4,689 nt of DNA from a virus (taxonomy: Duplodnaviria; Heunggongvirae; Uroviricota; Caudoviricetes). The stretch lies in IMG/VR virus record IMGVR_UViG_2667527792_000010, one strand, 5' to 3'. Below, piece after piece: positions 1-4,689 of the stretch. Within the stretch, counting starts at the first letter, position 1; every line of letters starts with the position of its first letter. The translations under genes and the position numbers were made by a program. The notes under the pieces were generated by a model that ran no database searches, had not been told where the DNA came from, and saw only the letters and a list, made by a program, of their open reading frames with translations.

Positions 1-399
1 ATGTACGTGATGCTGTGGCGCATTGATGCCGGAGATTATGCAGGGGCGCTGGAGATCGGGCGTCATGCCCTGCGTCATGGCTGGGTGATGCCGCTGGGTA
101 ACCGCAACGTGCAGACCGTGCTGGCAGAGGAAATGGCAGACGCGGCGCAGAGCGCAATGCTTGCCGCCACCGGCTTTGATGCCGATCTGTTGCTGCAGAC
201 GCTGGAGCTGACAGACGGTCTGGATATGCCGGACCAGTCACGGGCGCGTCTGCATAAAGCGATTGGCGCTGTCCTGAGTGAAAGCAACCCGGCTTCCGCC
301 CTTAATCATCTCAACCATGCGTTACAGCTCGATCCTCGCTGTGGCGTGAAAAAAGACAAACAGCAGCTGGAGCGCAGACTGCGCAATGACAGCCGCTGA
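1..399 (+). CDS. M: Phage terminase endonuclease subunit (P2 gpM-like), C-terminal part; probably 5'-truncated by the window edge
   Basis: Open frame from position 1 to TGA at 397-399. The translation resembles the C-terminal region of P2-family terminase small/endonuclease subunits, and the gene sits directly upstream of gpL and gpX homologs as in P2. The window happens to begin with ATG, but the expected protein is longer (about 240 aa), so the true start is likely upstream. Confidence 0.7.
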   Translation: MYVMLWRIDAGDYAGALEIGRHALRHGWVMPLGNRNVQTVLAEEMADAAQSAMLAATGFDADLLLQTLELTDGLDMPDQSRARLHKAIGAVLSESNPASALNHLNHALQLDPRCGVKKDKQQLERRLRNDSR

Positions 400-404
400 C
401 AGAA

Positions 405-429
405 CGTGCCCCCGCGCACGGGCGGCACG
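405..429 (+). other. GC-rich nested inverted repeat (potential RNA hairpin) in the M-L intergenic region
   Basis: Seen directly: CGTGCC (405-410) pairs with GGCACG (424-429), and CCCG (411-414) pairs with CGGG (419-422), around a CGCA loop with a one-base bulge. There is no downstream U-run, so it is not a canonical intrinsic terminator. Confidence 0.3.
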
Positions 430-494
430 GGGTGGCGAAAGGCACTGCCACATCAAAACCCCGTCCACCGCCCTCTATTTCAGGAGAAAGCAGC

Positions 495-959
495 ATGAAG
501 TTTGTTGCGCCAGAACAGGCACCAGAACAGGCGGAAATCATCAGGAATACGCCGTTCTGGCCTGATGTGGACCTGTCGGAGTTTCGCAGCGTGATGCGCA
601 CTGACGGCACGGTGACGCAGCCGCGTTTAAAGCAGGTTGCGCTGTCGGCAATTTCGGAGGTCAACGCAGAGCTGTATGAGTTTCGCAGACGCCAGCAGAT
701 GCTGGGGTATGCCTCGCTGGCAGAAGTTCCGGCGGAACAGCTGGACGGCAAAAGTGAGCGCATTCAGCACTATTTCAACGCGGTTTACTGCTGGGCACGC
801 GCCATGCTCAACGAACGATACCAGGACTATGACGCCACGGCGTCCGGTGTGAAGCGGGGCGAGGAACTGGCGGAAGCAAGCGGTGATTTGTGGCGTGACG
901 CCCGCTGGGCCATCAGCCGGGTGCAGGATGCGCCGCACTGCACAGTGGAGCTTATCTGA
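495..959 (+). CDS. L: Phage head completion/stabilization protein (P2 gpL-like)
   Basis: ATG at 495 is preceded by AGGAG (483-487) at 7-nt spacing; stop TGA at 957-959 overlaps the next start (TGATG). Position between M and X matches P2 order. The ORF track extends the frame to a GTG at 432, which lacks an RBS and lies immediately after the hairpin, so the 495 start is preferred. Confidence 0.7.
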   Translation: MKFVAPEQAPEQAEIIRNTPFWPDVDLSEFRSVMRTDGTVTQPRLKQVALSAISEVNAELYEFRRRQQMLGYASLAEVPAEQLDGKSERIQHYFNAVYCWARAMLNERYQDYDATASGVKRGEELAEASGDLWRDARWAISRVQDAPHCTVELI

Positions 960-1162
960 TGAAAGTGCGTGCGCATCAGTATGACACGGTGGACGCGCTT
1001 TGCTGGCGTCATTACGGGCGCACGCAGGGGGTCACGGAGCAGGTACTGAAGGCAAATCCGGGGCTTGCCGAATACGGCCCCTTTTTACCTCACGGGCTGC
1101 AGGTGGAGCTGCCGGACATTCCGACCACCACCACCGTGCAGACCGTCCAGCTATGGGACTGA
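959..1162 (+). CDS. X: Phage tail protein X (P2 gpX-like)
   Basis: 67-aa ORF, the same length as P2 gpX as I recall it, with a Phage_tail_X-like N-terminus (MKVRAHQYDTVDALCWRHYG). Start overlaps the L stop; conserved position before the lysis cassette. Confidence 0.8.
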   Translation: MKVRAHQYDTVDALCWRHYGRTQGVTEQVLKANPGLAEYGPFLPHGLQVELPDIPTTTTVQTVQLWD

Positions 1163-1165
1163 ATT

Positions 1166-1381
1166 ATGACGCTTGAGCGAATCAGCGCCTTTATCACGTA
1201 TTGCATCGCCGTCGTGCTGGCCTGGCTGGGCGATTTGTCCATCAAGGATGCCTCAACGCTGGGCGGTCTGATGATTGGTGTACTGATGCTGGCTATCAAC
1301 TGGTACTACAAACACAAATCCTACCTGCTTCTGCGCGACGGGCAGATCTCGCGGGAGGACTATGAATCCATCAATCGTTAA
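1166..1381 (+). CDS. Small class-II holin, candidate pinholin
   Basis: 71-aa product with two hydrophobic segments (SAFITYCIAVVLAWLG and LGGLMIGVLMLAINWYY) and a charged C-terminal tail (RDGQISREDYESINR). It lies immediately upstream of, and overlaps by 20 nt, a SAR-type endolysin gene. Size and topology resemble the phage 21 S21 pinholin class rather than the 93-aa P2 Y holin. Confidence 0.6.
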   Translation: MTLERISAFITYCIAVVLAWLGDLSIKDASTLGGLMIGVLMLAINWYYKHKSYLLLRDGQISREDYESINR

Positions 1382-1874
1382 ACGCTGCCTTGTCGGGGCC
1401 GTGCTGGCTATTGCTGCCACGCTGCCGGGTTTTCAGCAGCTTCACACCTCCGTGGAGGGGCTGAAACTGATTGCTGATTACGAAGGCTGTCGTCTGCAGC
1501 CGTATCAGTGCAGCGCGGGTGTCTGGACCGACGGCATTGGTAATACATCGGGCGTCATTCCCGGCAAAACAATCACGGAACGACAGGCAGCAGAAGGGCT
1601 GATCTCCAACGTGCTGCGTGTGGAGCGGGTACTGGAAAGGTGTGTGAAGCAACTGCCACCACAGAAGGTGTATGACGCTACGGTGTCGTTTGCCTTCAAC
1701 GTGGGGACGGGCAATGCCTGCAGCTCCACGCTGGTGAAATTGCTCAATCAGCGGCGCTGGGCGGATGCGTGCCGACAGTTGCCGCGCTGGGTTTATGTAA
1801 AAGGTGTGTTTAATCAGGGGCTGGATAACCGCCGTGCGCGGGAGATGGCCTGGTGTTTACAGGGAGCAAACTGA
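1362..1874 (+). CDS. SAR endolysin, T4 E-like lysozyme of the P1 Lyz / phage 21 R type
   Basis: GGGAGGA precedes the ATG at 1362. The N-terminus is a weakly hydrophobic, Gly/Ala-rich signal-anchor-release segment (KRCLVGAVLAIAATLPG). This is followed by a lysozyme catalytic region (VEGLKLIADYEGCRLQPYQCSAGVWTDGIGNT, with candidate E32/D39/T56 triad) and a C-terminal FNVGTGN...TLVKLLNQ...W motif, all closely resembling P1 Lyz and R21. Confidence 0.85.
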   Translation: MNPSIVKRCLVGAVLAIAATLPGFQQLHTSVEGLKLIADYEGCRLQPYQCSAGVWTDGIGNTSGVIPGKTITERQAAEGLISNVLRVERVLERCVKQLPPQKVYDATVSFAFNVGTGNACSSTLVKLLNQRRWADACRQLPRWVYVKGVFNQGLDNRRAREMAWCLQGAN

Positions 1875-1875
1875 A

Positions 1876-2253
1876 ATGAAAAAGAAATTAATCAGCGGAC
1901 TGTTTCTGATGTTATGGATGGCGCTGTTAATCGCAGCAATGGTGTATCCGCAGGGGATTTTTCCGGTACTGGCAGCGTCCGGCGTTTGGGTAGCCTGTTT
2001 GCTGACATGGGCGGTAATTCCGGTAGCACTGGCTGCGTTAATTAAGAATGGCCCGCTCTGGCAGGAGTTAAGGGCATCTTTACTGAAGACAATTACCCGA
2101 AAAGAAAACGTATTTATCAGTTGGGTGATGCGATTGCTGATTGTTGTAAGTCTCGCCTGGACGGGGTGGGCTATTACCCTGGTCTTTTATCTACTGACCG
2201 TTATTGCCTTCTGGATCACCCGTAATCAGATGGCGCAACAGGTAGCAGCATGA
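1876..2253 (+). CDS. lysA: LysA-like polytopic membrane protein (putative lysis-timing regulator or antiholin)
   Basis: ATG at 1876 (MKKKLISG...) lies 1 nt after the lysozyme stop, with GGGAG at 1862-1866. The product is 125 aa with about four hydrophobic transmembrane segments. Its position between endolysin and spanins matches P2 lysA. The ORF-track start at 1804 would overlap the lysozyme and lacks support. Confidence 0.55.
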   Translation: MKKKLISGLFLMLWMALLIAAMVYPQGIFPVLAASGVWVACLLTWAVIPVALAALIKNGPLWQELRASLLKTITRKENVFISWVMRLLIVVSLAWTGWAITLVFYLLTVIAFWITRNQMAQQVAA

Positions 2254-2678
2254 ACCGGTTGCTGCTGGTTGTGCTGGCGTTATTACTGGCGGCGCTGGGC
2301 TGGCAGACGTGGCGGCTGGCTGATGCCAGCCAGACCATTAGCACGCAGGCAGACGAGCTGCAGAGCAAAAGCCAGGCACTGGCAAAGAGCAACAGCCAGC
2401 TTATCAGCCTGTCCATTCTGACTGAAACCAATAACCGGGAGCAGGCGCGGCTCTATGCCGAAGCAGAACAGACCAGCGCGCTGCTGAGACAACGACAACA
2501 CCGGATCGAGGAACTGAAACGTGAGAACGAGGATTTACGCCGCTGGACTGATACTCCTTTGCCTGCTGACATTATCCGGCTGCGGGAACGTCCGACGCTC
2601 ACCGGAGGTGCAGCTTATCGTCAGTGGTTGTCCGCGAGTGACACCGTGTCGGCTGGATCAGGCAGAGCCGCGCACTAA
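2250..2678 (+). CDS. lysB: LysB, Rz-like inner-membrane spanin (i-spanin)
   Basis: ATGA overlap with the lysA stop. N-terminal transmembrane anchor (LLLVVLALLLAALGW) followed by a long charged, Gln/Glu/Arg-rich predicted coiled-coil region. 142 aa; position matches P2 lysB. Confidence 0.7.
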   Translation: MNRLLLVVLALLLAALGWQTWRLADASQTISTQADELQSKSQALAKSNSQLISLSILTETNNREQARLYAEAEQTSALLRQRQHRIEELKRENEDLRRWTDTPLPADIIRLRERPTLTGGAAYRQWLSASDTVSAGSGRAAH

Positions 2679-2811
2679 CGGTGATCTGAACGCGTTGTTG
2701 GATGAAACGGAGGCCGCCTGGGCGGTCTGTGCAGACAAAGTGGACATGATTATTGCGTGTCAGGAGCAAAACAGTGAACAAACCACAATCCCTGCGCCAC
2801 GCCCTCAATAA
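2521..2811 (+). CDS. lysC: LysC, Rz1-like outer-membrane lipoprotein spanin (o-spanin), in an alternative frame overlapping lysB and R
   Basis: GTG at 2521 is preceded by GAGGA (2508-2512). The product opens with a lipoprotein signal peptide (MRTRIYAAGLILLCLLTLSG|C) with lipobox L-S-G-C, and the mature part is Pro/Cys-containing. The frame starts inside lysB and ends at TAA 2809-2811, inside the start of R. Confidence 0.65.
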   Translation: MRTRIYAAGLILLCLLTLSGCGNVRRSPEVQLIVSGCPRVTPCRLDQAEPRTNGDLNALLDETEAAWAVCADKVDMIIACQEQNSEQTTIPAPRPQ

Positions 2812-3205
2812 AGCGGTGCCTTATGTCCGCAATAACCCGGACAAACTGCATCTGTTTGTGGATAACGGTTCGCTGGTTGCCACGGGGGCCAGCTCCATGT
2901 CGTGGGAGTACCGTTACACCCTGAACGCGGTGATTGAGGATTTCAGCGGCGACCAGAATCTGCTGATGGCCCCGGTTTTGCTGTGGCTGAGGGATAACCA
3001 GCCCGATGCCATCAATAACCCGGCGTTACGGGAAAAACTATTCACCTTTGAGGTGGATATTCTGCGCAACGATGTCTGTGATATCAGCCTGAACCTGCAA
3101 CTGACGGAGCGTGTGCTGGTCAGCACTGACGGTAGTGTGTCGAGTGTTGAAGCTATAGCGGAACCTGATGAACCTGAAGAAATGTGGACGGTGAAACGTG
3201 GCTGA
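2774..3205 (+). CDS. R: Phage tail completion protein R (P2 gpR-like)
   Basis: GTG at 2774 with AGGAG (2762-2766) at 7-nt spacing. The N-terminus (VNKPQSLRHALNKAV...NPDKLHLFVDNGS) resembles P2 gpR as I recall it. Conserved position after the lysis cassette. The ORF-track TTG at 2753 is an in-frame upstream alternative, less likely. Confidence 0.8.
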   Translation: MNKPQSLRHALNKAVPYVRNNPDKLHLFVDNGSLVATGASSMSWEYRYTLNAVIEDFSGDQNLLMAPVLLWLRDNQPDAINNPALREKLFTFEVDILRNDVCDISLNLQLTERVLVSTDGSVSSVEAIAEPDEPEEMWTVKRG

Positions 3206-3644
3206 ACTGCAGAAGGTGGACGACTGGCTGAGTGCCTTGCTGGCGAATCTGGAACCAGCCACGAGAAGCCGCATGATGCGCCAGCTGGCGCAGGAACTGC
3301 GCCGGACACAGCAGCAGAATATCAGGATGCAGCGCAATCCAGATGGCAGCAGTTATGAACCGCGCAGGGTAACAGCACGCAGCAAGAAGGGGCGCATCAA
3401 ACGTCAGATGTTTGCAAAGCTGCGCACCACAAAATACCTGAAAACTGCCGCCAGCACCGACTCTGCCAGCGTGCAGTTTGAAGGCAAGGTGCAGCGCATT
3501 GCCCGCGTTCACCATTACGGCCTGCGAGATCGCGTCAGTCGTAAGGGACCGGAGGTGCGTTACGCAGAGCGTCGCCTTCTGGGTGTAAATGATGATGTTG
3601 AGGCAATGACCCGCGACATGATTCTGCAATGGCTGGCGGGGTGA
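3198..3644 (+). CDS. S: Phage tail completion / virion morphogenesis protein S (P2 gpS-like)
   Basis: GTG at 3198 overlaps the R stop by 8 nt. The 148-aa basic product is close to the roughly 150 aa I recall for P2 gpS. Position between R and V matches P2 order. The exact start is uncertain because the RBS is weak. Confidence 0.75.
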   Translation: MAELQKVDDWLSALLANLEPATRSRMMRQLAQELRRTQQQNIRMQRNPDGSSYEPRRVTARSKKGRIKRQMFAKLRTTKYLKTAASTDSASVQFEGKVQRIARVHHYGLRDRVSRKGPEVRYAERRLLGVNDDVEAMTRDMILQWLAG

Positions 3645-3648
3645 TCTT

Positions 3649-3666
3649 TGTATCAGCACTGATACA
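3649..3666 (+). promoter_or_regulatory. TGT-N12-ACA dyad, candidate Ogr/Delta-type activator site of the P2 late promoter for the V-W-J operon
   Basis: Seen directly: TGT (3649-3651), 12 nt (ATCAGCACTGAT, itself palindromic), ACA (3664-3666), in the 68-nt S-V gap. P2 late promoters are reported to carry a TGT-N12-ACA element centred near -55 and to lack a -35 hexamer; the S-V gap is the expected location of the V promoter. Confidence 0.5.
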
Positions 3667-3712
3667 AGTTGCAGCACTGCCGCCTTTCTTCCCCTGATGG
3701 CAACCTTTCCCT

Positions 3713-4291
3713 ATGAACGCACAATTAACCGAAATCATGCGCCTTATCACCAACCTGATCCGCACAGGGGTAGTCACCGAAGTGGACAGGGAAAACTGGC
3801 TTTGCCGGGTGAAAACGGGCGAGCTTGAAACCAACTGGATCAGCTGGCTGACGCTGCGTGCCGGGAATGCCCGTACATGGTGGCGACCATCGGAAGGTGA
3901 GCAGGTGGTGCTGCTGAGTCTGGGCGGCAATCTGGAAACCGCCTTTGCGCTGCCCGCTGTCTATTCGAATCAGTTCGCACCACCGTCGACGTCGGCGGAC
4001 GCCTGCGTGACAGAACATCCTGACGGTGGCTGGTTTGAATACGAACCCGCCACCGGGCGCTGGTATGTCAGGGGCATCAAATCCATGGTCATTGAGGCTG
4101 CTGACAACATCACCATGAAAACCAGTGAGTTTGTACTGGAGGCTGACCGCACGCGCATTAACAGCGAAGTGGTGATCAATGGTGGCGTTACCCAGGGCGG
4201 CGGAGCGATGAGTTCTAACGGGATCGTGGTTGATGCGCATCAGCATACTGGCGTCCTGAAAGGCGGCGATACAACCGGAGGCCCGATATGA
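3713..4291 (+). CDS. V: Phage baseplate assembly protein V (P2 gpV-like baseplate spike)
   Basis: 192-aa ORF. The N-terminal region (LIRTGVVTEVDRENWLCRVKTGELETNWISWLTLRAGNARTWWRPSEGEQVVLL) is characteristic of the Phage_base_V family and resembles P2 gpV as I recall it. The first in-frame start is ATG 3713, immediately after an in-frame TGA; no Shine-Dalgarno sequence is visible upstream. Confidence 0.85.
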   Translation: MNAQLTEIMRLITNLIRTGVVTEVDRENWLCRVKTGELETNWISWLTLRAGNARTWWRPSEGEQVVLLSLGGNLETAFALPAVYSNQFAPPSTSADACVTEHPDGGWFEYEPATGRWYVRGIKSMVIEAADNITMKTSEFVLEADRTRINSEVVINGGVTQGGGAMSSNGIVVDAHQHTGVLKGGDTTGGPI

Positions 4292-4689
4292 CGCTTTATA
4301 GCGGGATGAACAATACCAGCGGCAAAGTCATTACTGATATTGATCATCTGCGCCAGTCGGTGCGGGACATTCTGCTGACACCGCAGGGTAGCCGTATTGC
4401 CCGCCGGGAATATGGTTCCCTGCTGTCGGCACTGATAGATCAGCCACAAAATCCGGCATTACGCCTGCAGGTCATGTCGGCAGTGTATGTGGCGCTGAGT
4501 CGCTGGGAGCCACGGTTGACGCTGGATTCCATCACCATCAACAGCAATTTTGACGGTTCAATGGTGGTGGAGCTGACCGGGCGGCGGAATAACGGTGTGC
4601 CTGTGTCCCTTTCCGTATCGGCTGAAAGGCAGCCAGAAAATCAGTGCCACAAACAAAGCAATGAGCCAGAACAGCGGATCGCGCAACAT
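4288..4689 (+). CDS. W: Phage baseplate protein W (GPW/gp25 family), 3' end beyond the window
   Basis: ATG at 4288 overlaps the V stop (ATGA). The translation ([46 protein letters not shown]...) matches the GPW/gp25 family. The frame stays open for 134 codons to the window end, so the stop is not observed. Confidence 0.8.

Follow-up and report, generated by a model that had tools for sequence, protein, structure and literature searches.

Probable assignment of a common enterobacterial prophage endolysin to the disulfide-regulated P1 Lyz subclass

Three regulatory subclasses of SAR endolysins, exemplified by P1 Lyz, Lyz103 and R21, are established. In P1 Lyz, a cysteine replaces the aspartate of the T4-lysozyme-type triad. 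This class of mechanism is said to have been defined in 2005, when Xu et al. reportedly described a switch in which C13 attacks the C44–C51 disulfide. P1 Lyz has the GH24 fold, with one cysteine in its SAR segment and seven in all (13, 44, 51, 91, 118, 150 and 178), and its two structures in the PDB are titled ‘active form’ (1xjt) and ‘secreted inactive form’ (1xju). The switch is backed in outline by these titles and by a further paper, in which the triad motif is described and the triad cysteine of P1 Lyz is blocked by a disulfide (PMC3556154). Lyz103, from Erwinia phage ERA103, is also a SAR endolysin of the GH24 family, with one cysteine in the SAR segment and another at Glu+2. It keeps the aspartate of the triad and reads D-C-E-G-C around the catalytic glutamate, which an inhibitory disulfide cages between the two flanking cysteines. 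R21 of phage 21 and RrrD of DLP12 (3hde, 3hdf, 4zpu) are SAR endolysins with the same fold, activated by refolding alone. R21 has an E-D-T triad, reads E-G-V, and carries cysteines only at positions 52, 71, 132 and 160, thus none in the SAR segment or at Glu+2.

Haemophilus phage HP1 is a temperate, P2-like myovirus. In HP1 the holin family was characterised as a pinholin, acting together with a SAR endolysin (PMC7312051). The latter enzyme, HP1 Lys, is 49% identical to P1 Lyz and has an N-terminal helix; the paper makes no mention of cysteines (PMC7312051). Another described enzyme, KP12.peg.319 of Klebsiella phage KP12, has been purified and is lytic in spot tests; it was presented as structurally P1 Lyz-like, with a TM-align score of 0.83 and a SAR domain that is conserved (PMC9902359). 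The words ‘disulfide’ and ‘cysteine’ appear only in reference titles of that paper, and neither the cysteines nor the regulatory subclass are discussed (PMC9902359). The endolysin analysed here is identical to KP12.peg.319 at 167 of 170 positions, the three substitutions being A13T, L98Q and T107V. All seven cysteines are the same, as is the lysis cassette. The Fels-2 endolysin is 91% identical to it.

The window and its lysis cassette

The window, that is, the whole stretch of 4689 bases analysed (IMGVR_UViG_2667527792_000010, Caudoviricetes), is, judging from its sequence, the late region of a P2-like prophage (Peduoviridae; Wadgaonvirus/Fels-2-type). Escherichia phage 500465-1, a Wadgaonvirus of the Peduoviridae, is 97.7% identical to the window over positions 1–4619, and identity to many records of Klebsiella prophages and phages is 97.1–97.4%. 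The gene order below was established from open reading frames and profile matches.

1–399: small terminase gene, end only
495–959: gpL, head completion
959–1162: gpX
1166–1381, + strand: class II holin, 71 residues, two hydrophobic segments (PF16080 ‘holin family HP1’, E 5.9e-8; PHROG 20 ‘holin’, E 9e-26)
1362–1874, + strand: endolysin, 170 residues, muramidase of the GH24/T4-lysozyme type with an N-terminal SAR-like segment (PF00959; PHROG 7; 1xjt)
1876–2253, + strand: LysA-like membrane protein, 125 residues, four hydrophobic segments (hydropathy windows; PHROG 162, E 8e-44)
2250–2678, + strand: LysB-type i-spanin (PHROG 89 ‘Rz-like spanin’, E 1e-44)
2521–2811, + strand: LysC-type o-spanin, overlapping the i-spanin gene (PF23793 LysC, E 5e-16, residues 16–84; PHROG 952, E 2e-29; PHROG 456, E 5e-19)
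2774–3205: gpR
3198–3644: gpS
3713–4291: gpV
From 4288: gpW, truncated

The endolysin gene starts with the ATG at 1362, preceded by a Shine-Dalgarno sequence (GGGAGGA, 1353–1359), and this start overlaps the final 20 nucleotides of the holin gene. The arrangement expected around a SAR endolysin, with a holin beside the gene and a lysis cassette, is thus present: the holin overlaps its start and the spanins lie downstream. The holin matches the Pfam family named after HP1, with a weaker Pfam match to PF04971 ‘P21 holin S’. In this respect the locus departs from P1: the cassette around the endolysin is of the P2 type and its class II holin belongs to the HP1 family, whereas P1 uses LydA/LydB (PMC9025707).

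The LysA-like protein encoded just downstream is an accessory of the lysis cassette and not an enzyme. Its precomputed family is PF28015, a local Pfam scan gave no match for it, and both PHROG 162 and the RefSeq record NC_049342 label it ‘endolysin’. For the o-spanin, the GTG at 2521 is probably the start, as it yields both a signal peptide and, with Cys21, an LSGC lipobox; shorter reading frames without the lipobox are annotated in related records. A perfect TGT-N12-ACA dyad lies at 3649–3666, upstream of gpV; it looks like the activator site that P2 late promoters carry. An Rfam scan of the whole window gave no matches. The last 70 bases (4620–4689) are the start of E. coli yehW, 23 codons in minus-strand orientation, and abut the truncated gpW; this gpW–yehW junction was found in no complete E. 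coli genome of the collection searched.

Catalytic residues and cysteines

The Pfam profile PF00959 (Phage_lysozyme) matches residues 39–161 with 133.7 bits, for a cut-off of 22.3, and PHROG 7 ‘endolysin’ matches with an E-value of 6e-67. A sequence search of the PDB returned both P1 Lyz entries as best matches, 1xjt (E 5.5e-26) and then 1xju, and BLASTP gave 38% identity to P1 Lyz (E 2e-33). The identity to R21 is 37% in BLASTP, for the catalytic domain only (residues 41–168). For these comparisons the P1 Lyz and R21 sequences were verified to be identical to 1xjt_A and 4zpu_A, and Lyz103 was taken from the Era103 genome record. The GH24 triad Glu-X8-(Asp/Cys)-X5-Thr is found at its exact spacing as E41, C50 and T56, within residues 41–62 of the endolysin (EGCRLQPYQCSAGVWTDGIGNT, nucleotides 1482–1547). 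The residues relevant to catalysis and to its possible control are as follows, with conservation given for the alignments A1 and A2, the latter of 22 sequences.

1386–1388, + strand: TGC codon of C9, single cysteine of the SAR segment and proposed attacking thiol (at least 90% of A2)
1482–1484, + strand: GAA codon of E41, catalytic glutamate (aligned with P1 E42, R21 E35 and the Lyz103 glutamate; invariant in A1 and A2)
1488–1490, + strand: TGT codon of C43, equivalent of P1 Lyz C44 and proposed pivot of both alternative disulfides (at least 90% conserved in A2)
1509–1511, + strand: TGC codon of C50, triad cysteine in E-X8-C-X5-T, equivalent of P1 Lyz C51 (invariant in A2)
1527–1529, + strand: ACC codon of T56, triad threonine (aligned with P1 T57 and R21 T50; invariant)

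The HMMER, BLASTP and MAFFT alignments all place E41, C43, C50 and T56 on E42, C44, C51 and T57 of P1 Lyz, and the P1 Lyz motif E-G-C-x6-C-x5-T is the same in both enzymes, residue for residue. A reading of the DNA from its sequence only had singled out C9, C43 and C50, with codons at the positions listed above, as the three-cysteine pattern of P1 Lyz, and had proposed alignment with P1 Lyz and R21 as a check. The codons and residues are right, and the alignment does put the two cysteines of the catalytic region on the regulatory positions of P1 Lyz, R21 having none there. The likeness is exact for C43 and C50 but looser for the third cysteine, as C9 falls off the C13 column, 32 residues before the glutamate compared with 29 in P1 Lyz, although its spacing is fixed within its own clade. 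The description of C43 and C50 as flanking the catalytic region needs correction: C43 comes two residues after E41, and C50 belongs to the triad itself, in the middle position. The protein also contains four cysteines besides the three first noticed, at positions 94, 120, 137 and 165, hence seven in all, the same number as in P1 Lyz. Two of them, C137 and C165, align with C150 and C178 of P1 Lyz and with the two C-terminal cysteines of R21. As they are invariant in the alignment with P1 Lyz, Lyz103 and R21, they are not specific to any regulatory class.

C9 is the only cysteine upstream of E41. The three residue features of the P1 Lyz subclass are all found in the endolysin, namely a triad cysteine (C50), a cysteine at Glu+2 (C43) and a cysteine in the SAR segment (C9). 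The R21 pattern, with its E-D-T triad and with no cysteine either in the SAR segment or beside the glutamate, does not fit an enzyme in which C9, C43 and C50 are present. The suggestion, made in the same sequence-only reading, that the cysteines indicate the regulatory class is therefore supported at this level: the P1 Lyz pattern is the only one that fits, those of R21 and Lyz103 being absent.

The N-terminal segment and the diagnostic cysteine

The N-terminal region has the composition of a SAR segment, that is, a weakly hydrophobic stretch rich in Gly, Ala, Ser and Thr which follows basic residues.

1386–1433, + strand: SAR-like hydrophobic segment C9–F24 (CLVGAVLAIAATLPGF), 16 residues, after K7 and R8 (composition and hydropathy)

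Gly, Ala, Ser and Thr make up 44% of this segment and its mean Kyte-Doolittle hydropathy is 2.11, to be compared with 53% and 2.07 for the SAR segment of P1 Lyz, and 65% and 1.99 for that of R21. Several differences from P1 Lyz are observed. The hydrophobic segment has 16 residues versus about 19; its cysteine directly follows the basic residues (K-R-C), unlike that of P1 Lyz; and an 11-residue insertion which P1 Lyz has after the FNxG motif is missing.

The AlphaFold model of the endolysin, built on alignment A2, has a mean pLDDT of 92.9. Residues 11–30, predicted with a pLDDT of 93–96, do not form a single transmembrane helix but two short helices (11–18 and 22–26) packed in the globular fold, and R8 makes a beta-bridge. 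A Foldseek comparison with the PDB ranked the active full-length P1 Lyz (1xjt) at the top, with a TM score of 0.85 over 173 columns; the R21/RrrD structures score 0.74–0.79 and the inactive P1 Lyz (1xju) 0.57. The model thus resembles the enzyme after release and refolding, when the former membrane segment has been taken into its body. Since the segment is predicted to be packed into the fold, it looks therefore as expected of a SAR segment, and not of a discarded signal peptide. By homology with P1 Lyz, the enzyme would be tethered to the membrane and would escape signal-peptide cleavage.

How far the cysteines are diagnostic was evaluated among homologues. The endolysin was scored against 1.84 billion cluster representatives, which gave 16,062 matches at E <= 0.001, and the best 150 of these were classified by the region upstream of the glutamate and by residues 43, 50 and 56. 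In the 105 usable diverged representatives among these best 150, a cysteine occupies position 43 in 53 cases and position 50 in 74. Both cysteines are found in 19 of the 59 soluble enzymes sampled; these 19 have about 14 residues before the glutamate and no hydrophobic segment, and 18 of them have no upstream cysteine. A further nine soluble homologues combine Cys43 with Asp50. C43 and C50 taken alone are thus weak evidence, because many soluble relatives carry both.

The upstream cysteine behaves differently. Among the diverged homologues (38–63% identity) which have a hydrophobic N-terminus and both other cysteines, 14 out of 15 have a single upstream cysteine, located at the start of the hydrophobic stretch and always 30–32 residues before the glutamate. 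The exception, P0152, starts abruptly within the hydrophobic stretch, perhaps because the gene call is truncated. None of the six homologues with a hydrophobic N-terminus but no triad cysteine (five have Asp, one Pro) has an upstream cysteine. Fisher's exact test on these counts (14/1 versus 0/6) gives p = 1.3e-4, a value which is indicative only, because the sequences are homologues and not independent samples. In A2, C9 alone is well conserved within the hydrophobic segment: it is retained in at least 90% of the sequences while the neighbouring hydrophobic residues vary freely. By these comparisons the N-terminal cysteine, conserved clade-wide, is the informative one. Virtually all of the 120 closest database clusters show the complete pattern C9/E41/C43/C50/T56; those that do not are gene-fusion artefacts and one C43G variant. 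This variant, P0080, is a natural one with Gly43 and keeps C9 and C50. A search of viral contigs with A2 for related loci returned only loci 95–100% identical.

Activation, alternatives and gene variants

Taken together, the triad, the three cysteines and the N-terminal segment point to a GH24 muramidase of the SAR kind which probably belongs to the P1 Lyz regulatory subclass and is activated by disulfide isomerisation. According to this scheme, the segment K7-R8-C9…F24 would direct export by Sec and tether the enzyme to the inner membrane; C9 would lie where the bilayer meets the cytoplasm, beyond the reach of periplasmic oxidants. The tethered form would be inactive, its catalytic C50 being locked in a C43–C50 disulfide. 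The adjacent class II holin, of the HP1/phage 21 type, is presumed to be the trigger of SAR release: depolarisation of the membrane by this holin would let the SAR segment exit the bilayer. The C9 thiol could then attack the C43–C50 bridge, with formation of C9–C43 and release of C50, and packing of the N-terminal segment into the globular body would yield the active muramidase. The two alternative disulfides (C43–C50 in the inactive form, C9–C43 in the active one), as well as any involvement of Dsb enzymes, are what we infer by homology with P1 Lyz.

Several observations count against this mechanism. C9 stands next to the basic residues, and its distance from the glutamate is 32 residues instead of 29. 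The pair formed by C43 and C50 is frequent among soluble GH24 relatives which have no N-terminal cysteine, so that it can exist without a regulatory role. The variant P0080 retains C9 and C50 despite its Gly43. Other disulfides could also form, given C94, C120, C137 and C165. The P2-like clade might use a disulfide circuit unlike that of P1 Lyz, with a different connectivity or number of exchange steps, because the SAR cysteine is located at the extreme edge of its segment, about one helical turn further from the glutamate, and four more cysteines are present. More broadly, the Glu+2/triad pair might be a general redox switch or a self-limiting device predating SAR regulation, since it is present in 19 of the 59 soluble representatives. 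This departure from the P1 Lyz scheme, in its narrow or broad form, looks quite improbable.

Activation by refolding alone, as for R21, would assign other roles to the same residues: C50 would be a variant nucleophile, C43 would be structural and C9 would be unneeded for activation. The fold shared with R21 (TM 0.78–0.79) agrees with this possibility, and so do the natural variant without C43 and the soluble homologues that do without an N-terminal cysteine, among the 19 with both cysteines and the nine with Cys43 and Asp50. It leaves unexplained why an N-terminal cysteine is kept at a fixed spacing in 14 of the 15 homologues with both cysteines and in none of the six without the triad cysteine, and why C9 should be the sole well-conserved residue of its segment. 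An unprotected pair of active-site cysteines seven residues apart would moreover be expected to oxidise in the oxidising periplasm. Refolding alone is for these reasons considered unlikely. The caging of the catalytic glutamate between two flanking cysteines, as in Lyz103, finds some echo in the SAR-segment cysteine and the cysteine at Glu+2, which the endolysin also has. The local sequence speaks against it, because the C-E-G-C arrangement is absent: the residue before Glu41 is Tyr40 and not a cysteine, and the triad position is held by Cys50 and not Asp. The comparison of Y40-E41-G42-C43 plus C50 with C-E-G-C plus Asp leads to rejection of such caging at the level of sequence, and its likelihood appears close to negligible.

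The N-terminus might also be a cleavable Sec signal peptide, in which case the mature enzyme would be soluble in the periplasm, would have lost C9 and would be controlled by other means. A 16-residue stretch after basic residues, with the small-x-small sequence A16-I17-A18, is compatible with such a peptide, and there is a precedent in T4 RI, of which the supposed SAR domain proved to be cleavable (PMC8385771). According to the same paper, neither P1 Lyz nor R21 has its SAR domain efficiently cleaved in PhoA fusions (PMC8385771). In the endolysin, the A-x-A sequence lies inside the hydrophobic core and not in a polar c-region, and motif inspection found no small-x-small motif conserved after the core in A2. 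A cysteine kept at a fixed, conserved spacing makes little sense in a peptide to be discarded, and AlphaFold packs residues 11–30 into the enzyme body, as in full-length active P1 Lyz. The shortness of the stretch and its A16-I17-A18 sequence leave some room for signal-peptidase cleavage, which seems nonetheless very improbable.

The P1 Lyz assignment, preferred here, gives a very common endolysin of enterobacterial prophages a place in a regulatory subclass that is already defined. Members of the family are found in P2-type prophages, Fels-2-like and Wadgaonvirus-like, of E. coli, Klebsiella, Salmonella and Citrobacter, and the databases contain thousands of copies. The assignment of this common prophage enzyme is correct at the level of sequence, and the subclass is a known one, the P1, Lyz103 and R21 subclasses being already established and a near-identical protein, that of KP12, published. 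It opens no new question, the similarity to P1 Lyz being already in print for that protein. For expression as an antibacterial, as for the 98%-identical KP12 protein, the redox state of C9, C43 and C50 should be expected to determine activity, as should retention of the N-terminal segment.

Some variants of the gene are seen in the databases. Rare fusions of the endolysin and LysA-like reading frames, 277–296 residues long, arise where one base is deleted, at any of several sites within about the last ten codons. The dominant junction reads RRARRWPGVYREQTEM; one allele is present on 30 contigs. Programmed frameshifting into the downstream reading frame was considered and rejected as unsupported, because the fusion positions are several, the fusions are rare relative to the intact form and there is no slippery heptamer. 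A 10-nucleotide direct repeat, TGCTGGCTAT, is found both in the second hydrophobic segment of the holin (1287–1296) and in the SAR segment of the endolysin (1402–1411), and accounts for rare holin–endolysin deletion fusions of 196–197 residues, which do not contain C9.

Cysteines in soluble GH24 endolysins and in a natural variant

In the P1 Lyz-like switch proposed for the endolysin, C43 (at Glu+2) and C50 (the middle residue of the E-X8-C-X5-T triad) would form a blocking disulfide, which would be relieved by C9 of the SAR segment. Soluble GH24 endolysins, too, commonly have Cys at both Glu+2 and the triad position: of 59 such representatives sampled, 19 carry this pair. These proteins, such as the representatives P0165, P0170, P0177, P0182 and P0187, do not have any N-terminal membrane segment. 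Nine more of the 59 combine a Cys at Glu+2 with an Asp in the triad. Once released, soluble Cys-pair GH24 endolysins would have to withstand oxidation in the periplasm.

A natural variant is found in P0080, a relative from Dryocola sp. LX212 that is 87% identical to the endolysin, in which C43 is replaced by Gly while C9 and C50 are kept. If functional, this protein would provide a natural test of the need for the blocking disulfide.

Gene fusions on either side of the endolysin

The following features are relevant to the fusions:
1166-1381, holin gene
1287-1296 and 1402-1411, exact 10-nt direct repeat
1362-1874, plus strand, endolysin gene
1840-1876, region of the one-base deletions
1876-2253, gene of the LysA-like membrane protein

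The direct repeat, TGCTGGCTAT, has its two copies 115 nt apart, one in hydrophobic segment 2 of the holin and the other in the SAR segment of the endolysin. Loss of the DNA between them yields exactly the holin-endolysin fusions of 196-197 amino acids found in databases (P0038, P0050 and P0098), all of which lack C9.

Fusions of the endolysin to the LysA-like protein, 277-296 amino acids long, form about 45 database clusters (P0006, P0014, P0018, P0019 and others). They are caused by a one-base deletion within the approximately 10 final endolysin codons, the frame of the downstream LysA-like ORF being open from 1804. Their junctions vary, the dominant one being RRARRWPGVYREQTEM, with one G lost from CGGGAG. 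The P0014 allele is seen on 30 contigs. The fusions are rare compared with the intact endolysin, whose clusters range in size from hundreds of members to 1753, and decay or sequencing errors probably account for them. Programmed frameshifting was also considered as their source, and no evidence for such a mechanism was found.

Annotation of the LysA-like protein and the o-spanin

The LysA-like protein (125 amino acids, four hydrophobic segments) has no muralytic domain. PHROG 162 and the RefSeq entry for phage 500465-1 both call it an 'endolysin', a label that looks like a propagated annotation error.

The o-spanin (LysC) ORF, 2521-2811, probably starts at GTG 2521, which is preceded by GAGGAA. 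A protein begun there has a signal peptide and an LSGC lipobox (Cys21); in the same numbering, its match to Pfam LysC runs from residue 16. Starts in related records are equivalent to 2638 or 2695 and leave the lipobox out. A second lipobox-like site, VSGC, lies at residues 34-37.

The gpS-gpV gap and the right end of the window

3649-3666, perfect dyad TGT-N12-ACA in the gpS-gpV gap
4620-4689, minus strand, start of E. coli yehW

The dyad, TGTATCAGCACTGATACA, lies 47 nt upstream of the gpV start codon. It resembles the Ogr-type activator site found at P2 late promoters and is a candidate for such a site.

The 70 terminal bases correspond to yehW codons 1-23, read from the window's end; yehW encodes a glycine betaine ABC transporter permease. 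At 4619/4620 this stretch directly abuts the gpW gene, which lacks its 3' end. Every one of the best-ranked matches listed from 5426 complete E. coli genomes ends at 4619, so that none of these genomes appears to have the yehW stretch beside phage DNA. The junction is explained either by an assembly chimera or by a prophage remnant or rearrangement located in yehW. The yehW stretch itself is found in about 4900 of the 5426 genomes.
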